From positions 1-60,222 of IMG/VR virus record IMGVR_UViG_3300042898_005595: a DNA stretch of 60,222 nt; one strand, written 5' to 3'. The stretch is from a virus (Duplodnaviria; Caudoviricetes). Below are positions 1 to 8,826 of the stretch, piece by piece. The notes beneath the pieces are model-generated. The model was given only the letters and a program-made list of their open reading frames with translations, did not search any database and was not told the origin of the DNA. A program made the position numbers and the translations under genes. Numbering within the stretch: the stretch's first letter is position 1; each line of letters opens with the position of its first letter.

Positions 1-18
1 TGTACCATACTAGCTTCC
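1..18 (-). tRNA. 5' end of a probable further tRNA-like gene, cut by the window edge
   Basis: Minus strand reads GGAAGCTAGTATGGTACA, 10 nt after the preceding tRNA-like gene in the cluster; no anticodon visible. Confidence 0.3.
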
Positions 19-28
19 AATCAATATG

Positions 29-109
29 TCGGCGTGACTGGAATCGAACCAGCATTTTCACTTACCAATTACCCGTAGCAATCTTATCAGGATTGAGGGT
101 TACACGCCG
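29..109 (-). tRNA. Atypical tRNA-Ile(GAU)-like gene without a normal D arm
   Basis: Acceptor CGGCGTG/CACGCCG+A, anticodon arm CAATC-CTGATAA-GATTG, T arm GCTGG-TTCGATT-CCAGT; only 7 nt between acceptor and anticodon stems. Confidence 0.6.
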
Positions 110-824
110 TTTTCTCTTCAAAATGTGTTTCCTTATGACAATTAGAACATAATAAAATACACTTATCAACTTCATTTTTTAATCTTTCAAAAGACCAAGA
201 TTTACCTGAAATGGTGAAATCTTTTTCATTTGGATCCCTATGGTGAAATTCAAGAGCATCTATACATTTTTTATATCTACATCTTTCACACTCACCACCT
301 TTATATTCTACAAGTTCAATTTTCTTTCTCCTTCTCCATTCAACTACTCCTTTTACTAATTGTTTTTTTCTTTTTTGTGAAACAATATTCATAACAGAAT
401 CTCTCGAAACATTTAGTAGTTTGGCTACCTTTCTAGTACTTTTAACTTCTTTATATGTTTCTCTTATCTTTGATTTAGTATCATTTGATATTTCAGAAAA
501 TTTCCTATTCATTATTAGTTCATATTCTCTACATATTTTTCCTATTATTGATTTCGATAGTCCTGTTATTTTTTTAATTTCTTCATAAGTTTTTAATTCT
601 TTTCTTAGTTCAATTACTTCATCAATTTTATCTGTTTCTAGTAAAAAAGAATTTGATTTTTCTTGTCTCTTATTTTTTATTTTTAAATTATTTTTTATTT
701 TCTCGTCATTATTCTCGATTTTAGAACAGTGATAAGAAATTGTGGATTTAGAACAATTTAATTTTTTAGCAATTTCATTATAACTAAATCCAAGTTTTCT
801 GAGTTCTAATATTTCTTTTTTCAT
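87..824 (-). CDS. HNH homing endonuclease with N-terminal helix-turn-helix repeats
   Basis: HTH-like repeats (FSYNEIAKKLNCSKSTISYH); C-terminal CERC..LEFHHRDP..CILLCSNCHKETH. Confidence 0.85.
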   Translation of the reverse strand: MKKEILELRKLGFSYNEIAKKLNCSKSTISYHCSKIENNDEKIKNNLKIKNKRQEKSNSFLLETDKIDEVIELRKELKTYEEIKKITGLSKSIIGKICREYELIMNRKFSEISNDTKSKIRETYKEVKSTRKVAKLLNVSRDSVMNIVSQKRKKQLVKGVVEWRRRKKIELVEYKGGECERCRYKKCIDALEFHHRDPNEKDFTISGKSWSFERLKNEVDKCILLCSNCHKETHFEEKTACNPQS

Positions 825-868
825 TTTGATTAACTTATTTTGTTAATCATATATATTAAAAATCTTTG

Positions 869-939
869 CTCCCCAGGTAGGTTACGATCCTACTTCCTAC
901 GTGTTAACAGCACGTTGCTCGCCACTGAGCTTCTGAGGA
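869..939 (-). tRNA. tRNA-Asn(GUU)
   Basis: Acceptor TCCTCAG/CTGGGGA+G; anticodon arm ACGTG-CTGTTAA-CACGT. Confidence 0.9.
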
Positions 940-952
940 ATATTTCTGTTTG

Positions 953-1025
953 TAGCTCCTGCGGGATTCGAACCCACATTCTCGCTTTAGAAGAGCGATG
1001 TCCTGTCCAGTTGGACGAAGGAGCT
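953..1025 (-). tRNA. tRNA-Arg(UCU)
   Basis: Acceptor AGCTCCT/AGGAGCT; anticodon arm TCGCT-CTTCTAA-AGCGA; GGTTCGAATCC T arm. Confidence 0.92.
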
Positions 1026-1030
1026 TTTTG

Positions 1031-1119
1031 TACCTCAGGTCGGACTCGAACCGACAGTGTTTTCCACGAGGGTGCTAGTTTCTAAAACTAGTGCGTTTCA
1101 ACCGTTTCGCCACTGAGGC
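1031..1119 (-). tRNA. tRNA-Leu(UAG)
   Basis: Anticodon arm CTAGT-TTTAGAA-ACTAG, long variable arm, canonical T arm. Confidence 0.92.
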
Positions 1120-1158
1120 ATCTTGTACCATTTTTTAAAAGGTGGTACTTCCTTTTTG

Positions 1159-1233
1159 TACTCCCCATCGGATTCGAACCGATACCTGTACAGGGTTTAA
1201 GTCTGTTGCCTCTTCCAATTGGGCTACGGGACC
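1159..1233 (-). tRNA. tRNA-Leu(UAA) with short variable arm and acceptor mismatches
   Basis: Anticodon loop CTTAAAC, T arm ATCGG-TTCGAAT-CCGAT; acceptor GGTCCCG/GGGGAGT has two G-G mismatches. Confidence 0.75.
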
Positions 1234-1237
1234 ATAT

Positions 1238-1275
1238 AAAACAAAAAACCCGAACTTCTTTCGAGGTTCGGGTTT
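1238..1275 (-). terminator. Attenuator terminator of the Leu/Arg/Asn/Ile tRNA operon
   Basis: AAACCCGAACCTC-GAAA-GAAGTTCGGGTTT then TTTGTTTT, directly before tRNA-Leu(UAA). Confidence 0.85.
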
Positions 1276-1302
1276 ATATCTTATTTGGAGTTATTTACTT
1301 CA

Positions 1303-1410
1303 TCATGAGATAAATCCAAATTTTGCACAACCCGAACCAGCGGTTCTAATACATAACGTATTCACCACCATCGTGAGATTCAAATTGATATTTAGATTCA
1401 TTGTTTTCAT
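1303..1410 (-). CDS. Leader peptide (35 aa, Asn/Leu-rich) of a tRNA operon attenuator
   Basis: MKTMNLNINLNLTMVVNTLCIRTAGSGCAKFGFIS*; contains GGTTCGGGTT, fully complementary to the terminator 5' arm. Confidence 0.75.
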   Translation of the reverse strand: MKTMNLNINLNLTMVVNTLCIRTAGSGCAKFGFIS

Positions 1411-1457
1411 TATTTCTTATATATTAAAAAGTTTATGTTCCTTTTGATTTTGTTTTA

Positions 1458-1489
1458 CAAATATATGGTGTATTTTTTACACCACCAAA
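1458..1489 (-). promoter_or_regulatory. Bacteroidota-type primary sigma promoter
   Basis: TTTG-N20-TATATTTG matches the -33/-7 consensus TTTG/TAnnTTTG; a second TATATTTG lies at 1524-1531. Confidence 0.75.
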
Positions 1490-1548
1490 TTTATTTTATT
1501 ATTTTTCTGTTTTTATTGTATTACAAATATACAATAAAGTTTTTAAAG

Positions 1549-2316
1549 TTATAGAGATATATTATTACTCTTTAAAACTTCGGCTAGAACTTCAATAGAT
1601 TCTTCTACTCTATCGTATTGAAATATTCCATTACTATTTGGCTTTGGCCAGTAGTTTATTTTCCACTCATATCTTGGATAAACATTGACTACTCTACTTT
1701 CAATATTTTTGTATTTTAAATAGTAACTAAAAATATGATCATCATGCATCGCAATCATATCGTGAAGCTTATATCCATCGATGAACATATTTACCCAATT
1801 ATATAAATCCTCATAATTTAGAATATTTGCTGGGTAAAGAACTCCACGATATCCACCTAACAAATCAACAATATGATAGTCACCATTTATAAATTCACCA
1901 TGGACAAATTTATCATCTTTAATACCCATTATTCCATATACAGAGTCACTACCACACTTATCATGAATATTTTTCAAACATTCTATAGCAGTTGGGAATA
2001 ATCCATTATCATCATCAAATATTAATATTTGATCATCAGATTGTAAGTTATGTTCCTTTAGTGGAGTTAATAGTTTAAGACAAGGTCCTATATCCTGATC
2101 ATAAAAAACTATCCTATTCTCGATAGGATAGTTTTTTAATTTTTCAGATATTTTTTCAATATCAGATTCATCTATAGACTTATTGAGTCTAGGATAAAAT
2201 CTCGATATCGAAACATATAAAAAGTCTGGAATTATTGTACTTAATAATAATTCATCAAGTGTTTTGATGAAATCATCAGTTCTATCGGGTAAAGTAATAA
2301 CAGAAGAGATTATCAT
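1549..2316 (-). CDS. GT-A fold glycosyltransferase-like protein
   Basis: TLPDR start, DIGPCLKL, IFDDD motif, GGYRGVLYP, HDD. Confidence 0.65.
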   Translation of the reverse strand: MIISSVITLPDRTDDFIKTLDELLLSTIIPDFLYVSISRFYPRLNKSIDESDIEKISEKLKNYPIENRIVFYDQDIGPCLKLLTPLKEHNLQSDDQILIFDDDNGLFPTAIECLKNIHDKCGSDSVYGIMGIKDDKFVHGEFINGDYHIVDLLGGYRGVLYPANILNYEDLYNWVNMFIDGYKLHDMIAMHDDHIFSYYLKYKNIESRVVNVYPRYEWKINYWPKPNSNGIFQYDRVEESIEVLAEVLKSNNISL

Positions 2317-2738
2317 TAAACAACTTCTAAAATTTCAATATCAAATACTAATGTCTCACCAGCCAATGGATGATTCGCATCAACTAAGATATTAGAGTCA
2401 TTTATTTCCTTAACTATAAAAGGTACTTCTTGTCCGTTCTTTAGAGTACCTTTCAATGTTTGTCCAATCACAACATTATCAGGAGCCATATTTTTAGGAA
2501 CACTAAGAATCATCTCCTGATTTATCTCACCATATCCTCTTTCTGGATCAATCTGAACAGTTTTTTTCTCACCTGGAATCATACCCAAAACAGCTTCCTC
2601 AAATCCCTGAATTAATTGACCTTCTCCAACAACAAACTCAAGAGCTGTTCTATCATCACGATATGAGGTGTCAAAAATACTATCATTAGTATATTTACCA
2701 GTATAATGTACCTTTACTTTACTTCCGTTTTTAATCAT
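2316..2738 (-). CDS. FKBP-type peptidyl-prolyl isomerase, SlyD-like
   Basis: VKVHYTG..FDTS..GEGQLIQGFEEA..YG..VDANHPLAGETLVFDIEIL. Confidence 0.92.
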   Translation of the reverse strand: MIKNGSKVKVHYTGKYTNDSIFDTSYRDDRTALEFVVGEGQLIQGFEEAVLGMIPGEKKTVQIDPERGYGEINQEMILSVPKNMAPDNVVIGQTLKGTLKNGQEVPFIVKEINDSNILVDANHPLAGETLVFDIEILEVV

Positions 2739-2790
2739 TTCTAATATTTATTTTTAATTTTATTAAAAATAATAGAATAAGTTTAAAATC

Positions 2791-3096
2791 TTAATGTTCC
2801 TGATCATCCCATTCCGTATCATCAGTATATAAATCATCTATATACAAGGATATTTCTTGATATATTTTTTCAACTTGACTATAATCAAACCATCTTGTTT
2901 CAGATTCTAATTCTTGTAAAAATCTAACAAAACTATCTGTACCTGGTTTAAACATTTCAATAAGTTCCTCCTTTGAATGCTCTGGATATTTTAAATCAAT
3001 CCACTCATGGAATATCTCAAAAAGATCTTCTTCTTGTTCAGATGGCAATCCTTGATAATCTTCTTCAAAATCTTCGTACATTTTTAAATAGTTCAT
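2791..3096 (-). CDS. Acidic hypothetical protein with CTS-like N-terminus
   Basis: ORF starting MNYLKMYEDF; TATATA motif upstream. Confidence 0.6.
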   Translation of the reverse strand: MNYLKMYEDFEEDYQGLPSEQEEDLFEIFHEWIDLKYPEHSKEELIEMFKPGTDSFVRFLQELESETRWFDYSQVEKIYQEISLYIDDLYTDDTEWDDQEH

Positions 3097-3137
3097 TACA
3101 AAAAATAATTTTAATTATATATTAAAAATAATTTTAA

Positions 3138-3401
3138 TTAATCAAGATCAAAGATCATTTTATAATATTTTCTAATGTAGTTCGGAAGTTTACCATGTTT
3201 CTCCTCACACCTTTTAAAAAGATCAGCTTGTACAATTGCATTATATTGATCTAAATTATTTGAAAAGACTTTAGTTCGTATATCGATATGTGCATCTGCA
3301 CCATCTTCACCCTTATAAGCGTCTATCAAACTTTTATAAGAACCTGATATCTTTGCAGGTAATACATTATTAGACTCGTTAAACTTTTTTAAATGCTTCA
3401 T
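3138..3401 (-). CDS. Hypothetical protein with CTS-like N-terminus
   Basis: MKHLKKFNES. Confidence 0.6.
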   Translation of the reverse strand: MKHLKKFNESNNVLPAKISGSYKSLIDAYKGEDGADAHIDIRTKVFSNNLDQYNAIVQADLFKRCEEKHGKLPNYIRKYYKMIFDLD

Positions 3402-3469
3402 ATTTTGTAAATGATTTAATTATATATTAAAAAGTCTAATTAAAAATTTCATATTTTAATATATAATAT

Positions 3470-3952
3470 ATGAAATACTTAAAACTATTTGAATCATTTG
3501 ACATAGATGAAGACGCTGAACATCTTAAAGATTTATCTTTGGATTTAAAAGATGAAGGCGAATGGAGTATAACTATTCACACAAATGTTGAAAAGTATAA
3601 TGACGATGATTATTCTACAAGAGTTATTCTTGAACCATTAGATGAATTTGATTGGGATGGTCCGGGAGTTGCCGAGGGTAATACTAAAGGTGGTAAGATA
3701 AATGATACACTAATTCAATATCTGGAAGACATTGTAGAGTATATGGAGGATTATGATTATAAAATAATAGTTGTAGGTGATGGTGATAACCCTATAACGA
3801 TCAACAGCTCACATCATGAAATAAACATAGAAAATGTTGAAGAGTTTAAAAAATGGACACAAAGAGAATTAAAATATCAAAGAAGTGACATAATGACATT
3901 TGGATTTAAAGGTGATTTAATCATTATAGAATTCTATGAAAAAGATATATAA
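3470..3952 (+). CDS. Acidic hypothetical protein with CTS-like N-terminus
   Basis: MKYLKLFESF; AATATATA directly upstream. Confidence 0.65.
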   Translation: MKYLKLFESFDIDEDAEHLKDLSLDLKDEGEWSITIHTNVEKYNDDDYSTRVILEPLDEFDWDGPGVAEGNTKGGKINDTLIQYLEDIVEYMEDYDYKIIVVGDGDNPITINSSHHEINIENVEEFKKWTQRELKYQRSDIMTFGFKGDLIIIEFYEKDI

Positions 3953-3955
3953 CAT

Positions 3956-4822
3956 ATGAAAAAATTCTCTGAGTCACAGATTTCAATTTTTGAATCTCCA
4001 GAACCTCTCGACTTTGTATCACTATTTGAAAAGATGAAAAATCTTAAGTCTTGGCTTTACACGTCAACTGGTCTTGGTATGATGTCTATAATTGATGATA
4101 TATTCAAAGAATATAATTATGAAACATCATTAAATCAAAATCAAATTGATAAGTTTAATAGAGGTGTTGAATTATTGAAAAAAACCTCAATGCCATTAGA
4201 CCACATAAATTTACGACTATCTCAAAAATTACCAGGTGGCATACAAAGTAAAAAATTAGTTTTAGATGAGAATGGCGAATGGGATTATGTCAATAAATTA
4301 AATACAAATTATTTAGATTTATCTGATCTTTTAGTTGAATTAATAAAAAGAGGATGTGATAACAACTATGAAAAGGGTAAATTAGTATATGATTCAATTA
4401 TGAATAATCCCAAACAAGGATTGTTAGAAATAAAACCATACTTAAAAAGATTAATAGTACTTTACTTTATTGAAAAGGGGAAAGGATTGGATGATTTTAA
4501 AAAATTTACGGTATATTCAAAGAAAATGTCTAAGATAGGAGAAGTAGCTGAAGATTCAGTAACAGCCTTTTTACAATCTAAAGGATTTTTAATCGCACAC
4601 TCTGGTGGAAATGGAGATTTTATAGATATGGTTTTCGGTGTTGATTTGATAATTTTTTGTCATACTAATAAAAATCCAGATCTTGTTGGATACAAAAGCG
4701 TCCAGATAAAAAATAGGATTGATGATTGGTCTAAATTAAGTTACTATAAAGTTGATATAGTAGCAGAAACAAACCCAGTAAGGTTCTATAACCTTAAAGA
4801 TAAATCTATTTTAGATCTTTAA
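3956..4822 (+). CDS. Hypothetical protein, possible C-terminal PD-(D/E)xK nuclease fold
   Basis: GEVAE..DMVFGVDLII..SVQIK pattern. Confidence 0.45.
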   Translation: MKKFSESQISIFESPEPLDFVSLFEKMKNLKSWLYTSTGLGMMSIIDDIFKEYNYETSLNQNQIDKFNRGVELLKKTSMPLDHINLRLSQKLPGGIQSKKLVLDENGEWDYVNKLNTNYLDLSDLLVELIKRGCDNNYEKGKLVYDSIMNNPKQGLLEIKPYLKRLIVLYFIEKGKGLDDFKKFTVYSKKMSKIGEVAEDSVTAFLQSKGFLIAHSGGNGDFIDMVFGVDLIIFCHTNKNPDLVGYKSVQIKNRIDDWSKLSYYKVDIVAETNPVRFYNLKDKSILDL

Positions 4823-5405
4823 TTTGGATCATCTTTCTAACAACCGTTTTCAATCCCGGATTCACCAATAGTGCCTCTGGTACAATATTGTGACGAATAC
4901 GATTTCTTGAATAATCAACACAAGAATTAGATTCATCTTCAACAAATGGTACATTTTTATTCTGACACCATTTATAAAATACTGATTTTTCATTAAGTAA
5001 GAATGGTCGAATCACATTTCCTCTAGAATAAGGAATAACCGATTGAAATCCTCTAAGACAAGAGAATAAGTAAGTCTCTACACAATCATCTAAATGATGG
5101 CAAGTAATAATAGGAAAATCAAATTGTGAGAAAAATTCATATCTCAAATCACTCCAAATCTTTTCTTTGTTAGATTTAGGACTTAAATCAGTTCTTCCAA
5201 CAAATAATTTTAAGTTATGAGTTCTACAATATTTTGTAACTAATTCTTCGGCTTTATCTCCATTTTCTGTATTATGATTGAAGTATAGAATATTAGGATA
5301 ATATCCACCATTCAATAGAAAGTTAGCAATCGCCATTGAATCAACTCCACCAGAACAAGCAAGTCCGAATTCTCCTTTTGGAATATTACCTAAAACTTTA
5401 ATCAT
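4806..5405 (-). CDS. tilS: tRNA(Ile)-lysidine synthetase, catalytic domain only
   Basis: SGGVDS PP-loop, FNH, LRY, HHLDDCVET, IRPFL, DESN..RNRIRH; likely ATG at 5405 just after TATATTTG. Confidence 0.88.
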   Translation of the reverse strand: MIKVLGNIPKGEFGLACSGGVDSMAIANFLLNGGYYPNILYFNHNTENGDKAEELVTKYCRTHNLKLFVGRTDLSPKSNKEKIWSDLRYEFFSQFDFPIITCHHLDDCVETYLFSCLRGFQSVIPYSRGNVIRPFLLNEKSVFYKWCQNKNVPFVEDESNSCVDYSRNRIRHNIVPEALLVNPGLKTVVRKMIQIKDLK

Positions 5406-5450
5406 ATACAAATATAATCAAATTATTGTAAATTTCAAGATAATTAATTG

Positions 5451-5525
5451 TGGAGCGTAAGGGAATCGAACCCTGTTTTTCAGAACAACTTGCAAAGTTG
5501 TTTGGTCACGCCTGTACAACGCCCC
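5451..5525 (-). tRNA. tRNA-Ala(UGC) with atypical D region
   Basis: Acceptor GGGGCGT/ACGCTCC+A with G3:U70; anticodon arm ACAAC-TTTGCAA-GTTGT; TTCGATT T loop. Confidence 0.7.
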
Positions 5526-5534
5526 TTTATTTTG

Positions 5535-5608
5535 TGGAGAATATCGGATTTGAACCGATTACCTTTTGTATGCCATACAAACTCTCTAGCCAACTGAGCT
5601 AATTCCCC
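5535..5608 (-). tRNA. tRNA-Ala(GGC)
   Basis: Acceptor GGGGAAT/ATTCTCC with G3:U70; anticodon arm TTTGT-ATGGCAT-ACAAA. Confidence 0.88.
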
Positions 5609-5646
5609 TGGAGCCGGACCCTGGGACTAACAGGGAGTCCTCCGGC
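5609..5646 (-). ncRNA. 38-nt tRNA-minihelix-like element ending in UCCA
   Basis: GCCGGA-GGACT-CCCTG-TTAGTCC-CAGGG-TCCGGC-TCCA, abutting G1 of tRNA-Ala(GGC). Confidence 0.5.
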
Positions 5647-5649
5647 ATT

Positions 5650-6300
5650 TTAAATATCAACTTTTTTAATAACTCTTCCTTTTATCCATCCAATACTTAT
5701 ATAATCATTTAAATCATTTTTATTAATTTTTTTATTTCCGAATTCAATATGATATATCCAACAAGTTCCATATTGAGAATTTTTCTCACCTTTTTGACTT
5801 TTAGAATTTTTTTCACCAATCTTCTTTTTCGATTCTTCTTTATGACTCTTTCCTGTCCAATCAGGTGCCTTTAAAATTCCCAATTCTCTAAGATTTCTAT
5901 TCTGTATAACCATTCTTTCTTTATTTCTTTTTCTGAATTCTGGATTATTCCAATTAATTTTATTCATTGAAATAGCAGCTTTTTTATTTTTTTCCTTTCT
6001 TAGTACAATGTTAGAATTTATTGATTCAAAACAATCACCACCTACAATTATATTATACACATCAATTCTTTTTATAAAACTCTCATTAACTATTTTTTTC
6101 TCCATTTCGTATGCCTCATTCTCACTATCTAATATAAATAATATATCCTTTACAAAATTTTCAACTCCATATTTAATTATGGCTCTTCTAATATATTTTC
6201 CACTTCCCATATAACCATCATTTATATCAGTCGTTGAGTGTTTACCTATGTAAATTTTACCATTTAAGATATTTGTAATTTTATAAATTATATGCAACAT
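5650..6300 (-). CDS. GIY-YIG homing endonuclease (Seg-like) within the tRNA cluster
   Basis: IIYKITNILNGKIYIGKH..YMGSG..YN; NUMOD3-like GKSHKEESKKKIG. Confidence 0.9.
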   Translation of the reverse strand: MLHIIYKITNILNGKIYIGKHSTTDINDGYMGSGKYIRRAIIKYGVENFVKDILFILDSENEAYEMEKKIVNESFIKRIDVYNIIVGGDCFESINSNIVLRKEKNKKAAISMNKINWNNPEFRKRNKERMVIQNRNLRELGILKAPDWTGKSHKEESKKKIGEKNSKSQKGEKNSQYGTCWIYHIEFGNKKINKNDLNDYISIGWIKGRVIKKVDI

Positions 6301-6346
6301 AACAAGAACTATTTATTTTATATATTAAATAGTTCGAGTCCTGTTA
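6299..6346 (-). promoter_or_regulatory. Hairpin occluding the endonuclease start, with TATATA in the loop
   Basis: TAACAG..GAACTATTT-AATATATAAAAT-AAATAGTTC-TTGTTATG. Confidence 0.6.
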
Positions 6347-6354
6347 CTCACAAG

Positions 6355-6425
6355 AGCAAAATGTGGGAATCAAACCCCGTCCCCACATTGGAAGTGTGGT
6401 GCTTTATCATTAAGCTACATTTTGC
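6355..6425 (-). tRNA. tRNA-Gly(UCC), apparent 8-bp acceptor and 4-nt T stem
   Basis: GCAAAATG/CATTTTGC+T; anticodon arm CCACA-CTTCCAA-TGTGG. Confidence 0.75.
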
Positions 6426-6430
6426 TTATG

Positions 6431-6504
6431 TTGGTGAGGTGGGTAACGATCCCACTATCTTGTGTGTATAAGACACATGCTTCTACCGTCTAAGCTACTC
6501 ACCA
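6431..6504 (-). tRNA. tRNA-Ile(UAU)
   Basis: Acceptor TGGTGAG/CTCACCA; anticodon arm TGTGT-CTTATAC-ACACA; T loop ATCGTTA. Confidence 0.85.
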
Positions 6505-6541
6505 AAATAAAAAAACCCAGTCAATTTTCATCGACTGGGTT
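6505..6541 (-). terminator. Attenuator terminator of the Ile/Gly/Ala tRNA operon
   Basis: AACCCAGTCGAT-GAAA-ATTGACTGGGTT then TTTTTATTT. Confidence 0.88.
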
Positions 6542-6568
6542 AAGTTTTTTAGTTTTTAATATTATAAT

Positions 6569-6655
6569 TTAAAAACTTTTTGACATAACACAGTCATTGA
6601 CACCCGCTCCCGCGCCGCCTCCGATTATTGCTATTGTTATGTTTAAAGTTTTCAT
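6569..6655 (-). CDS. Leader peptide (28 aa, Ile/Gly/Ala-rich)
   Basis: MKTLNITIAIIGGGAGAGVNDCVMSKSF*; ATAx3, ATC, GGA GGC GGC GCG GGA GCG GGT. Confidence 0.85.
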   Translation of the reverse strand: MKTLNITIAIIGGGAGAGVNDCVMSKSF

Positions 6656-6716
6656 TTTATTCTATTTTTAATTATATTATTATATATTAGAAAAGTTTTC
6701 TTTCCTAAATTTTTTG

Positions 6717-6799
6717 TTGGAAGAGAGGGATTCGAACCCCCGTACTCCGAAGAGATTTGATTTACAGTCAAACGCATTTAGCCACTCTGCCACCTTCCA
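6717..6799 (-). tRNA. tRNA-Tyr(GUA)
   Basis: Anticodon arm TTTGA-CTGTAAA-TCAAA, long variable arm, GGTTCGAATCC. Confidence 0.92.
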
Positions 6800-6808
6800 A
6801 TATTTTTG

Positions 6809-6879
6809 TAGCCCGTAGGGGTAACGATCCCCTCTTTTTTGGTTGAAAACCAAGAGTCCTTCCTCTAGACGAACGGGCC
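6809..6879 (-). tRNA. tRNA-Glu(UUC)
   Basis: GGCCCGTTCGTCTAG..GGAC; anticodon loop TTTTCAA; T loop ATCGTTA. Confidence 0.88.
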
Positions 6880-6885
6880 AATTTG

Positions 6886-6959
6886 CACTCTTGACGGGAA
6901 TCGAACCCACATCTACATCGGTCTGAGAAACCGGAGTCCTACCGTTAGACGACAAGAGC
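6886..6959 (-). tRNA. tRNA-Glu(CUC)
   Basis: GCTCTTGTCGTCTAACGGTAGGAC; anticodon loop TTCTCAG; GGGTTCGATTCCC. Confidence 0.88.
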
Positions 6960-6965
6960 ATTTAG

Positions 6966-7036
6966 TGGGATAAGAGAGAATCGAACTCTCGTAGCTATGT
7001 TTTACAGACATTCTTGGTTGCCCTGACCTTTATCCC
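6966..7036 (-). tRNA. Atypical tRNA-Tyr(GUA) with short variable arm and odd D arm
   Basis: Acceptor GGGATAA/TTATCCC+A; ATGT-CTGTAAA-ACAT; GAGAG-TTCGATT-CTCTC. Confidence 0.7.
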
Positions 7037-7042
7037 AATTTG

Positions 7043-7116
7043 TACTCTTGACGGGAATCGAACCCGCATCTACATCTGTTTGAAAAACAGGAGTCCTACC
7101 GTTAGACGACAAGAGC
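7043..7116 (-). tRNA. tRNA-Glu(UUC)
   Basis: Near-duplicate of 6886-6959 with anticodon loop TTTTCAA. Confidence 0.88.
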
Positions 7117-7131
7117 ATTTACAATATATTT

Positions 7132-7168
7132 AAAACAAAAAACCCAGTCAATTTGATTTGACTGGGTT
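7132..7168 (-). terminator. Attenuator terminator of the Glu/Tyr tRNA operon
   Basis: AACCCAGTCAA-ATCAAA-TTGACTGGGTT then TTTTGTTTT. Confidence 0.88.
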
Positions 7169-7195
7169 ACTTGTGTTTTTAGTTAATATTTTATA

Positions 7196-7276
7196 TCAAC
7201 TTTTCACAGACATAGTATCTCCAGTCGCTGAGTGTTCTTCATACGCTTCATAATAATATGTTGTTACAGTTGTCAT
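7196..7276 (-). CDS. Leader peptide (26 aa, Tyr/Glu-rich)
   Basis: MTTVTTYYYEAYEEHSATGDTMSVKS*; TAT TAT TAT GAA GCG TAT GAA GAA. Confidence 0.85.
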   Translation of the reverse strand: MTTVTTYYYEAYEEHSATGDTMSVKS

Positions 7277-7311
7277 GATTTCTTTATTTTAAATTGTTCT
7301 ATTTTGTTTTA

Positions 7312-7342
7312 CAAATATACGGAGATTTTTTAAACCACCAAA
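7312..7342 (-). promoter_or_regulatory. Bacteroidota-type promoter driving the Tyr/Glu leader
   Basis: TTTG-N19-TATATTTG. Confidence 0.78.
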
Positions 7343-7361
7343 TATTTGTAAAACTTTTTTG

Positions 7362-7433
7362 TAGCGGGGGGTGGAATCGAACCACCGACCTTTAGGTTAT
7401 GAGCCTAACGAGCTGCCTCTGCTCTACCCCGCA
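7362..7433 (-). tRNA. tRNA-Met(CAU), initiator-like
   Basis: TGCGGGGTAGAGCAG..AGCTCG, anticodon arm TTAGG-CTCATAA-CCTAA, 1:72 mismatch; own TATATTTG at 7451-7458. Confidence 0.88.
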
Positions 7434-7538
7434 ATATTTAGTATATATTACAAATATACTTCTTTGTTTTAATTTTTTTAATATATAATTTTATAATTAA
7501 CTTTTTTTTATTATATTTGTAAAACAAACAACAGAACT

Positions 7539-7886
7539 ATGACAAATTTCCTATCAATAGATGAACGTAATCAAATTGAGAAAGCAAAGGCTGAAATTAA
7601 GTCAGAACTATCTCGATTAAGAAACAAAATTAATAATTTTGTAGGTATTGAAATATTTACTTTTATTCTAACACTTTCATATCTCAATAATCAATCTTTT
7701 CTATTTGATACCAATCCAATTGTTGCATGGTCAATCCTTACAGGATTAGTCCTATTTCAAGTTATTCTAGTAATGGCCACACGAGTGGCTCTATACAATT
7801 GGAATACTAACCAACGTGTATTAGAGATTTATGACATGTCAGACGAAGAGTTTGACAGAAAATTCAAAGAATTCTGTGAAAAATAA
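7539..7886 (+). CDS. Two-TM membrane protein
   Basis: Two hydrophobic segments; TATATTTG at 7512-7519. Confidence 0.7.
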   Translation: MTNFLSIDERNQIEKAKAEIKSELSRLRNKINNFVGIEIFTFILTLSYLNNQSFLFDTNPIVAWSILTGLVLFQVILVMATRVALYNWNTNQRVLEIYDMSDEEFDRKFKEFCEK

Positions 7887-7909
7887 AAAAGACCTTTTAG
7901 GTCTTTTTT
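7885..7909. terminator. Bidirectional intrinsic terminator
   Basis: AAAAAAGACCT-TTT-AGGTCTTTTTT between convergent genes. Confidence 0.8.
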
Positions 7910-7919
7910 ATTTTAATTT

Positions 7920-8345
7920 TTAATTAGTTGAATCAACTAAGATATCATCTTCATCGGGAAGATCAAAAACTTCTTCATCATCTTTATCAACTTCATTATA
8001 GAGATTTTTGATGAAGTTTGGTGCAGGAACTTTTGCTGTTTTAAAATCTACTAAACTTGGAACTGTTGTTCTAAAAGTAGATAAAAGATAAACTACACTC
8101 CAAACAAAATTTAAATCTTTTAAACATAGTAGAGAGAATACTACTGGAACTAAAATTGGAGAGAATGCTACTAGTCGAACTTGAGTTAGAGTGTTAAGGT
8201 TAGAAATATAAATCCTAACACAGTCAAGTCTCTTGATACGGATCTTATTAATTCTACTGAAAAGTAGAAGAGCAACAAGTATATGTGATAACTCGTGTAG
8301 AACAAGAGCGGGTAAACACCAGATATTTTTATAGAATTTAATCAT
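7920..8345 (-). CDS. Membrane protein with HExxH motif (zincin/M50-like)
   Basis: LVLHELSHILVA..VAFSP. Confidence 0.6.
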   Translation of the reverse strand: MIKFYKNIWCLPALVLHELSHILVALLLFSRINKIRIKRLDCVRIYISNLNTLTQVRLVAFSPILVPVVFSLLCLKDLNFVWSVVYLLSTFRTTVPSLVDFKTAKVPAPNFIKNLYNEVDKDDEEVFDLPDEDDILVDSTN

Positions 8346-8403
8346 GTCTATATGTTGTTTGTTTTACAAATATATGAAAAAAAATGATTAATAAAAAAAT
8401 TAT

Positions 8404-8826
8404 TTAGGTGTTTTGTAAAATTTTTAGGTCAATATCATCAAGAGAATCTCTACCATATTCATTAATTTTATCTAACACATCATCAGTATTTAAATTTTGA
8501 ATACGGATTTGATCAATACTCCATTTAAAAATTTCGTTGTACTTATAAACTCGATGTAGAAGAGGATCAACATCAATCATCTTAACAACTGATTGAGTGA
8601 TATCTGTATAAGAAAAAGAAACACCTTCAGAAACTAATTTTGAAATATATTCATTAGTTTTCTGAGGTGTTTCAGTTAAAAATATTATGTGTCTCTTTCC
8701 TTCTGTTGGAGTTAATCCCCAAGATTGAAAATCTCTTTGATCGATTTCACAATCTTTAGCAATCATTTCAAACTTAAAGACGACCAATCCAAGTGTGTTA
8801 GTGATTCTTTTATTTTCCGGAAGCAT
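8404..8826 (-). CDS. Hypothetical protein with C-terminal rhomboid-tail-like (DUF6576-like) motif
   Basis: DDVLDKINEYGRDSLDDIDLKIL. Confidence 0.55.
   Translation of the reverse strand: MLPENKRITNTLGLVVFKFEMIAKDCEIDQRDFQSWGLTPTEGKRHIIFLTETPQKTNEYISKLVSEGVSFSYTDITQSVVKMIDVDPLLHRVYKYNEIFKWSIDQIRIQNLNTDDVLDKINEYGRDSLDDIDLKILQNT

Follow-up and report, generated by a model that had tools for sequence, protein, structure and literature searches.

The window analysed here is the whole of the virus record IMGVR_UViG_3300042898_005595 in IMG/VR (60,222 bp of an uncultured phage, G+C 28.7%, the sole contig of its assembly), in which all tRNA genes lie within the first 7.5 kb on the minus strand, as do all features given below unless marked (+). 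There, three tRNA clusters each stand behind a short open reading frame (ORF), hereafter the leader, and an intrinsic terminator. A first-pass annotation of the sequence had described these three minus-strand repeats of short ORF, hairpin with T-run and tRNA cluster, and we confirmed them, with ORFs of 26, 28 and 35 codons where it had placed them. The question they bear on is how phages set the timing and amount of their own tRNAs, which are usually discussed as compensation for codon usage or as replacements for cleaved host tRNAs.

Leaders, terminators and promoter-like sites at the tRNA clusters

Leader ORF 1 (L1, 7276-7196, 26 codons, MTTVTTYYYEAYEEHSATGDTMSVKS) contains four Tyr and three Glu codons; leader ORF 2 (L2, 6655-6569, 28 codons, MKTLNITIAIIGGGAGAGVNDCVMSKSF) contains four Ile, five Gly and three Ala codons; and leader ORF 3 (L3, 1410-1303, 35 codons, MKTMNLNINLNLTMVVNTLCIRTAGSGCAKFGFIS) contains five Asn and four Leu codons and one Arg codon, AGA. 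In all three, 27 nt separate the stop codon from the stem of an intrinsic terminator, which is present between leader and tRNA genes in every case. Terminator 1 with its T-run spans 7135-7168 (hairpin 7168-7141) and has an 11-bp stem and a 6-nt loop (-15.9 kcal/mol), followed by TTTTGTTTT. Terminator 2 (6507-6541, hairpin 6541-6514) has a 12-bp stem and a 4-nt loop (-17.7 kcal/mol) and is followed by TTTTTATTT, while terminator 3 (1240-1275, hairpin 1275-1246) has 10 bp plus 2 across a bulge (-15.9 kcal/mol) and is followed by TTTGTTTTA. The first tRNA of each cluster starts 9-19 nt after the T-run, so that a transcript begun farther upstream can include the tRNAs only by passing the terminator.

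ARAGORN found 13 tRNAs in the window and Rfam 14 above its gathering score, with 12 common to both. Those called by one program alone were the Rfam matches at 7036-6966 and 109-29 and the ARAGORN Ala(tgc) at 5525-5450; the first of these was identified as tRNA-Tyr(gta), 7036-6965, by ARAGORN with relaxed settings (Rfam score 32.8 bits). Behind L1, cluster 1 (6716-7116, ARAGORN and Rfam) comprises Glu(ttc) 7116-7042, Tyr(gta) 7036-6965, Glu(ctc) 6959-6885, Glu(ttc) 6879-6808 and Tyr(gta) 6799-6716. Cluster 2, behind L2 (5450-6504, ARAGORN and Rfam, with Pfam for the protein gene), comprises Ile(tat) 6504-6430, Gly(tcc) 6425-6354, a GIY-YIG endonuclease gene at 6300-5650, Ala(ggc) 5608-5534 and Ala(tgc) 5525-5450; we assumed that its Ala tRNAs are co-transcribed with Ile and Gly across the endonuclease gene. 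Cluster 3, behind L3 (868-1233, ARAGORN and Rfam), comprises Leu(taa) 1233-1158, Leu(tag) 1119-1030, Arg(tct) 1025-952 and Asn(gtt) 939-868.

A promoter motif had been reported before each leader, which held for L1 and L3 and failed for L2. Upstream of L1 lies a promoter-like site (7312-7342, TTTGGTGGT..TATATTTG) of the pattern TTTG-N18-21-TAnnTTTG, and upstream of L3 lies another (1458-1489, TTTGGTGGTG..TATATTTG), whose spacer holds an inverted repeat. We take TTTG..TAnnTTTG to be the Bacteroidetes-type promoter consensus; the full pattern matches the window 6 times, against 3.2 expected. The extended sequence of the L1 site is common to the 1489-1458 site and to sites upstream of leaders in four further loci (L003-L006). 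The pattern scan of the window found no such site upstream of L2, which has just the motif TCTAATATATA (6681-6691), 26 nt upstream of the leader and one mismatch from TTTAATATATA.

The sequence TTTAATATATA itself occurs 42 times in the window at one mismatch or fewer, against 18.5 expected (0 of 100 shuffles reached 42), and stands 5-26 nt upstream of many start codons, for example at 850-860, 1418-1428, 3116-3126, 3421-3431, 6319-6329 and 3455-3465 (+). In the relatives of the window described below, many leaders are preceded by it, lengthened there to TTTAATATATAAGAAATAATGA. It is a candidate phage-specific promoter, and because it stands before many leaders, these may have two promoters. 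The spacer of the promoter-like sites upstream of leaders (1465-1485 in the window; L003-L006) often carries an inverted repeat of the GGTG..CACC type, a possible operator for a further layer of control.

Leader content and the tRNA sets downstream

Each leader of the window carries a run of residues belonging to its own cluster: YYYEAYEE before Glu/Tyr, ITIAIIGGGAGAG before Ile/Gly/Ala and NLNINLNL...R before Leu/Leu/Arg/Asn. As a control we took every ATG ORF in the window that is 15-60 codons long, 357 over the two strands, and scored each by its best 8-codon stretch of a cluster's amino acids. The leaders scored 7/8 (L1), 8/8 (L2) and 7/8 (L3) cognate residues, values that 1, 1 and 3 ORFs, respectively, attain, counting the leader itself; L2 in addition has a longer stretch with 12 cognate residues in 13, which none of the other ORFs equals. 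Binomial tests over the whole peptide gave P = 0.02 (L1), 0.001 (L2) and 0.09 (L3), weaker values because the signal is a local run. Among the six possible assignments of leaders to clusters the true pairing was the best, and wrong pairings scored negative or low.

A blastn search of a phage collection found two uncultured phage genomes, LR745206.1 (634,780 bp) and LR756502.1 (642,428 bp), in which the Glu/Tyr and Ile/Gly/Ala leaders are syntenic with the window. Each genome has seven leader classes, every one backed by a terminator and a tRNA array: His/Phe/Trp/Lys (MTTNSTHKNFSKSHKWFSNQSF...), Ser/Arg(acg) (MKTINNTSKSSSRSSSMSEIRLYS), Glu/Tyr and Ile/Gly/Ala (homologous to L1 and L2), Asn/Leu/Arg(tct)/Val/Thr/Ile (MTTMNLNMTMNLTLNVVNITLCNIR...), Pro/Asp (...APVNPQPQDQDP...) and Gln (MTTTQQIQQQQINQTD). 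In both genomes the true pairing of leaders with arrays was the single best of 5040 assignments. In LR745206.1, 55 of the 61 Rfam tRNA matches sit in leader-headed arrays, and the six outside them include a tRNA-Met with a promoter and no leader, as at 7433-7361 of the window.

We then turned to IMG/VR, where three pattern scans gave at least 240 loci (two of the scans mostly returned unrelated phages); 41 of the 240 loci numbered L007 upward (246 in all) have two or more tRNAs. A fixed pipeline took the start of each tRNA array and required a terminator no more than 110 nt away and, close to that terminator, the end of an ATG ORF; among the matches listed it yielded 41 candidate ORFs at 33 junctions, from which the longest ORF per junction was taken; one doubtful-looking junction (L044) was kept in the set. 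The resulting 45 unique leaders consist of 28 from the 33 IMG/VR junctions, where an ORF was required, and 17 read by eye in the window, LR745206.1 and LR756502.1.

Leaders of this wider set follow their arrays even where the arrays are differently composed. An array of Lys, Lys and Tyr stands behind MKTVNAYYKQYYYK..., one of Pro, Gln, Tyr and Thr behind MTTITTYTGKQYPQGKQTPTG..., and one of Glu, Tyr, Gly and Gly behind MKMITTYYYEAEGS...; the merged array Tyr, Glu, Ile, Gly, Ala has the leader MRTIINIEAIGYAYEAG..., containing ...IINIEAIGYAYEAG..., and the merged array Gln, Pro, Asp has a leader with ...AQVNPQPQDQD.... In the nearest relative of the window, the 135-kb contig L030, the L3 homologue has three extra in-frame codons, Thr, Asn and Asn, and its array holds a second Asn and a Thr tRNA, both missing from the L3 array of the window. 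Over the 45 leaders, the enrichment for the amino acids of the own array summed to z = 146.5, compared with 2.7 +/- 10.6 (maximum 51.9) when shuffled, and each of the 20 amino acids was more frequent in leaders whose array carries its tRNA. Covariation of leader content with the downstream tRNAs in relatives, the check that the first-pass annotation had proposed, was therefore positive, with 0 of 20,000 shuffles reaching the observed sum, a pooled P value that overstates the number of evolutionary events because homologous leaders are not independent; the independent cases are those in which arrays have been merged, split or altered.

The signal is specific to the reading frame. Of 1234 residues in each frame, 461 are cognate in the ORF frame, 196 in the +1 and 158 in the +2 frame, and the ORF frame carries the most in 44 of the 45 leaders. 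Alignment A1, of seven leaders of the Asn/Leu class, has gaps of 3 or 6 nt only within the ORFs, and an ATG-to-stop frame is present in each of the 45 leaders, 28 of which came from the pipeline that required one. When positions 1-8500 were searched with cmscan at E <= 1, no match to the Rfam leader families (Thr, Trp, His, Leu and similar) or to the T-box was found; the search returned the tRNAs plus weak unrelated hits below gathering scores. Frame specificity, in-frame indels and this lack of an Rfam leader or T-box match argue for translation and against an RNA that binds tRNA directly, and we infer that the leaders are translated.

At the codon level, a cognate-amino-acid codon was counted as readable if a downstream anticodon reads it under simple wobble, with the expectation drawn from synonymous usage. 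In the window, readable codons amounted to 7/7 (L1), 8/12 (L2) and 9/10 (L3), against 7.0, 6.5 and 9.0 expected; overall they amounted to 168/186 against 155.9, a small excess for which only Arg and Ile are informative. Arg codons are CGN in 5/5 cases in the Ser/Arg(acg) leaders and AGA in 4/4 in the Asn/Leu-class leaders, three of these four AGA codons being upstream of a detected Arg(tct), and Ile codons are ATA in 9/12 cases within Ile(tat) leaders. The earlier claim that the enriched codons are those read by the downstream tRNAs stands as far as amino acids are concerned; for codons it does not, the match in the window being no better than synonymous usage.

Sequence variants were seen at two places. 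The loop of terminator 1 (7152) is 2 nt shorter in one contig from each of four DNA sequencing runs, and in the L3 ORF (1358-1377) one DNA contig of run X4 has a 3-nt insertion plus a +1/-1 pair 5 nt apart, with the frame kept. Both are strain variants that resemble L030 and are consistent with a coding constraint.

Predicted alternative pairing between leader and terminator

For each leader we compared the duplex of the 3' part of the ORF and the 5' arm of the terminator with 300 dinucleotide shuffles. In most leaders folded without the 3' arm of the terminator, the partner of the 5' arm lies in the final third of the ORF. In L3 this antiterminator strand (1328-1338, ORF nt 73-83) pairs GGTTCGGGTTG with AAACCCGAAC over 10-11 nt at -14.1 kcal/mol, and 0 of 300 shuffles were as good; it is a near copy of the terminator 3' arm and changes together with the stem in homologues. 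The candidate strand of L1 (7220-7227, ORF nt 50-57, CGACTGGA; -11.0 kcal/mol, 5/300 shuffles as good) is paired with the terminator 5' arm in the minimum free energy (MFE) structure without the 3' arm. That of L2 (6586-6596, ORF nt 60-70, TGACTGTGTTA; -8.9 kcal/mol) lies at the position of region 2 of its homologues, and the Gly/Ala codon run (ORF nt 38-48) could pair with the terminator arm instead, at -10.2 kcal/mol. Support for an antiterminator is thus strong for L3, moderate for L1 and weak for L2, and the complementarity between the 3' third of each leader and its terminator 5' arm that had been noted earlier is to be graded in the same way.

Among the 17 leaders of the window and its two large relatives, seven had at most 6/300 shuffles as good. 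Across all 45 leaders, we compared each leader's pairing with its own arm to that with the arms of other leaders, and found a preference for the own arm (column-normalised z averaging -0.99, with none of 20,000 permutations as low). Three versions of the stem core occur in the Asn/Leu class, GTTCGGG, CTGAGGG and CTAGGGG, and with each of them the ORF segment bears the version that matches, which as read from these sequences is a coordinated change of three strands. These arms and segments were compared sequence by sequence, in place of counting pairs in alignments, which was dropped, since MAFFT misregistered the arms of the window and L030 in alignment A1 and the ORF part of alignment A3 was poorly aligned.

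As a proxy for folding during transcription, we truncated the transcript ahead of the terminator 3' arm and masked a stretch of 28 nt about the codon in the A site of a ribosome. In L1, the probability that the 5' arm is paired upstream was 0.72 for an A-site up to E13 and about 0.38 thereafter; in L2 it was 0.73-0.83 up to A14, then 0.10 and 0.08; and in L3 it was 0.90 up to I20, then 0.02-0.47. Such a drop in the predicted pairing past a given A-site codon was found in 44 of the 45 leaders. Cognate residues are concentrated before it, with 366/725 before and 89/480 after across the set; in the window the figures are 7/13 versus 0/12 for L1, 10/15 versus 2/12 for L2 and 10/21 versus 0/13 for L3. 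The regulatory codons hence sit where a stalled ribosome would leave the antiterminator free, meaning that slow decoding would lead to read-through.

Leaders of different classes (alignments A2 and A3) also share AACATA near codons 5-6 and TATGT near the end of the ORF. The two pair in the full-length MFE structure of L2 and are too conserved for a covariation test; the helix is a possible anti-antiterminator.

Attenuation as the probable control of tRNA supply

The trp/his/thr/pheST-type attenuator layout proposed by the first-pass annotation was borne out by the sequence-level tests, including frame specificity and the preference for the own arm, apart from the geometry of a completed leader, which is taken up below. 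The structural features of an attenuator that can be seen in sequence are present in the leader family as a whole, with the antiterminator of L2 weak when taken by itself. It is thus likely that ribosome-mediated (leader-peptide) transcription attenuators gate these phage tRNA operons, and each tRNA set is probably made only when ribosomes read the codons of its leader slowly.

According to this model, transcription would start upstream of each short ORF, with a strong intrinsic terminator standing before the tRNA genes. A ribosome on the nascent leader would meet a run of codons for the amino acids of the tRNAs encoded just downstream. Were decoding slow, the ribosome would stall upstream of the ORF 3' segment, the near copy of the terminator 3' arm, and the freed segment could pair with the emerging terminator 5' arm, giving read-through into the tRNA genes. 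Were decoding fast, ribosomes would run over this segment or queue on it, allowing the terminator to form and transcription to stop. The outcome would be negative feedback, operon by operon, between the decoding capacity for a set of codons and the synthesis of the tRNAs that read them. We infer the direction of the switch, its kinetics and its physiological trigger. The trigger could be a mismatch between the codon use of the phage and the tRNA pool of the host, loss or cleavage of tRNAs, or amino-acid limitation. For host anticodon nucleases, which had been suggested as the trigger, no supporting data emerged, and since the relatives cover nearly all amino acids, a general control of supply and demand fits better.

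With somewhat less assurance, we consider it likely that huge phages of Bacteroidetes-type hosts have a modular, codon-resolved feedback on tRNA supply, in which nearly all tRNA operons have as their gate a translated test ORF composed of codons for the operon's own tRNAs, and in which ORF codons are gained and lost in frame as tRNA genes are gained, lost, merged and split.

Several observations weigh against attenuation as set out here, in addition to the non-independence of homologous leaders noted above. Some concern leader content. L1 has six Thr codons and cluster 1 has no Thr tRNA, part of which excess is a shared N-terminal feature, as many leaders begin MTT or MKT. The window codons ATC, GGC (twice), GGT and CTC lack a downstream anticodon that reads them under simple wobble, and the Ser/Arg leaders of the relatives contain seven AGT Ser codons with no Ser(gct) detected there (a Ser(gct) is present in one IMG/VR relative). 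The array boundaries were set by us, and some tRNA calls rest on relaxed ARAGORN settings. A sigma-70-like match, TTGACT-17-TATATT (10/12), at 7151-7123 lies partly on the 3' arm of terminator 1 and stops immediately short of tRNA-Glu. In a host with that consensus, transcription independent of the terminator could begin there. The match is probably due to chance, because it is not conserved in the relatives, whose stems differ.

Others concern the switch. The L2 antiterminator is weak (63/300 shuffles as good), and the antiterminator duplex is not significant singly in 10 of the 17 leaders. When ribosome masks are applied to equilibrium folds, the terminator dominates in L1 and L2 at any ribosome position (P 0.96 and 0.99), while L3 does switch, with a terminator probability of 0.01-0.08 for an A-site on N8-L11 and 1.00 on T22-F30. 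Any switch in L1 and L2 must therefore be kinetic, and equilibrium folding was dropped as a test of the switch, having given none for these two. In the co-transcriptional proxy, a ribosome on the stop codon leaves the antiterminator free again in 19 of 44 leaders, including L1, L2 and L3, and blocks it in the other 25. Without any ribosome the antiterminator is predicted to form (L1 0.72, L2 0.44, L3 0.90) and is free in 35 of 44 leaders, so that the predicted default, unlike that of trp, is read-through. Masking thus reproduces the stalled-ribosome half of the attenuator geometry; the completed-leader half it does not reproduce in 19/44 leaders, the three of the window among them. As the antiterminator is free again at the stop codon, termination after full translation needs something outside the masking model. 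We suppose that the missing factor may be the sheer size of a ribosome within the loop of the antiterminator, another ribosome waiting about 30 nt behind it and covering the segment, or timing relative to the polymerase.

We weighed this model against four other explanations. In one, the same switch would report amino-acid starvation or general translation stress, with stalls caused by uncharged tRNA and read-through serving, for instance, the timing of infection. A leader-peptide attenuator, as known from trp and his, cannot distinguish a missing tRNA from a missing charged tRNA, and that blindness favours such a sensor, as does the coverage of nearly all amino acids in the relatives, by which no single tRNA species is targeted. 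Extra tRNA, however, gives no relief of amino-acid starvation, what each operon makes is just what would shorten stalling on the codons of its leader, the hallmark of a feedback on tRNA supply, and the use of Arg CGN versus AGA and of Ile ATA tracks anticodons, not merely the amino acid; we therefore regard a starvation sensor as unlikely. We find it quite improbable that the logic is reversed, i.e., that efficient translation of the leader leads to read-through and stalling to termination, as positive feedback or a check on translation. The masking model does free the antiterminator with a ribosome on the stop codon in 19/44 leaders, and a ribosome stalled at the last cognate codons of L2 (A16, G17) would cover the pairing partner; yet cognate codons lie upstream of the point at which the antiterminator is blocked in 44/45 leaders, and positive feedback could not start if the tRNAs were absent.

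Direct sensing of tRNA by the leader RNA, without translation and with the codon run acting as specifier triplets, seems less probable still. T-box leaders also join a codon-like specifier to a choice between terminator and antiterminator (the class is named in the available text of PMC2965389), but here no T-box or other Rfam cis-regulatory match was found at E <= 1, all 45 leaders have an ATG-to-stop frame with a frame-specific signal and frame-keeping indels, and a single specifier would not take the form of 7-13 successive codons for two to seven different amino acids. Least probable of all, in our judgement, is that there is no regulation, the terminators being leaky and constitutive or acting as processing signals, and the short ORFs being small genes or chance frames. 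Antiterminator statistics that are weak for single leaders (10/17) and the modest whole-peptide binomial tests in the window would fit this, whereas two facts would be left unexplained: that leader composition tracks the tRNA set over at least seven classes plus merged and split variants, and that the 3' part of the ORF tracks its own terminator stem.

The attenuation model has relatives among known systems. Multivalent leaders are familiar from enterobacteria, where thrL senses Thr and Ile and the ilvGMEDA leader senses Ile, Leu and Val; further leaders there are hisL, trpL, pheL and leuL. Like these leaders of amino-acid operons, the phage leaders have a short ORF (here predicted to be translated) in which regulatory codons for one amino acid or several follow one another in a run, an intrinsic terminator before the regulated genes whose 5' arm can pair alternatively with a segment near the 3' end of the ORF, and a predicted read-through upon upstream stalling; the general mechanism would be as described in the available text of PMC1183508. 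The phage leaders differ in that they have no sequence or Rfam match to the enterobacterial ones, are phage-borne and may sense up to seven amino acids each. Their antiterminator strand, unlike that of enterobacterial leaders, lies inside the ORF, 10-35 nt before the stop codon in most, and their predicted ribosome-free default is read-through (35/44). Moreover, because the regulated genes are tRNAs and not biosynthetic enzymes, the product would act directly on the sensor.

Attenuation of a translation component is seen in pheM-pheST of E. coli, where a leader peptide controls genes for an aminoacyl-tRNA synthetase. In bacilli, a His-codon leader lies upstream of hisS paralogues (PMC2965389, in the text available). 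The phage leaders resemble both in that attenuation is applied to a translation component serving the sensed codons; the hisS and pheST targets are genes for charging proteins, for one amino acid each, while the phage targets are tRNA genes, in sets. T-boxes share a conserved fold and bind uncharged tRNA directly, with no need for translation. Like these riboswitches (a class named in the part of PMC2965389 available), the phage leaders would sense the state of specific tRNAs and choose between terminator and antiterminator, but unlike them they have no T-box match and their signal is frame-specific. In Anabaena PCC 7120, the trn operon is a silent tRNA array induced under translational stress (PMC8421152 and PMC10272220, each as partly accessible) and is controlled at transcription by the protein repressor TrcR (PMC10272220, in the same part). 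It is the closest published case of an accessory tRNA array that can be induced. The likeness lies in an accessory tRNA array turned on when translation is impaired, as predicted here; the trn control is global and cellular, whereas the phage design is viral and matched codon by codon.

Full-text literature searches (with subscription-only journals and ~1.7 million PMC articles out of reach) found no published account of leader-peptide attenuation of tRNA genes, and the accessible main text of the huge-phage paper of Al-Shayeb et al. 2020 (PMC7162821) contains 0 occurrences of 'leader' or 'attenuat'. We rejected 'lysQ' in PMC4833913 as a published precedent, as it is a permease gene. If correct, our reading would make this the first case of leader-peptide attenuation controlling tRNA genes, extending attenuation from amino-acid metabolism to the decoding machinery. 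With a ribosome-read sensor for each operon, tRNA supply would adjust itself separately for every codon set, and the phage could fit its output of tRNAs to the demand of its own codons and possibly replenish those that host defences have destroyed. For annotation, the leader peptide would predict the content of a tRNA array, including tRNAs overlooked by gene finders, and in synthetic biology the leaders could serve as short sensors of decoding speed at chosen codons.

Several neighbours of the three operons deserve mention. The GIY-YIG homing endonuclease gene inside cluster 2 (5650-6300) is ~70% identical in nucleotide sequence, over 268 nt, to segB of phage T4 and relatives, and segB of T4 is likewise situated in the tRNA region of its phage. 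The two phages are thus alike in having a tRNA cluster that carries a GIY-YIG homing endonuclease; for T4, we are not aware of any leader-peptide attenuator in front of the tRNA genes. Upstream of L1, a tRNA(cat) at 7361-7433 has a promoter-like site directly before it and neither leader nor terminator, and in LR745206.1 a leaderless Met/CAT tRNA likewise precedes the Glu/Tyr leader. The anticodon stem of the former, read by eye, is without the three G-C pairs of initiators, and this tRNA may be an elongator Met or a lysidine-type Ile tRNA. Directly after the Ala tRNAs of cluster 2 begins a gene (4806-5411) for a 201-aa PP-loop ATPase (Pfam ATP_bind_3, E 1e-30) of the TilS/MesJ-type family, a candidate tRNA-modifying enzyme beside the tRNA operons.

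Downstream of cluster 3 lies a 245-aa ORF (87-824) in which HNH-like Cys/His motifs were seen by eye. It overlaps the weak tRNA match at 29-109 (Rfam 30.2 bits), which has an unusually long insert after a GAT-looking anticodon loop and for which the relaxed ARAGORN call differs, with an intron. Between the tRNA operons, a gene at 2316-2738 encodes an FKBP-type peptidyl-prolyl isomerase (Pfam FKBP_C, E 1e-21).

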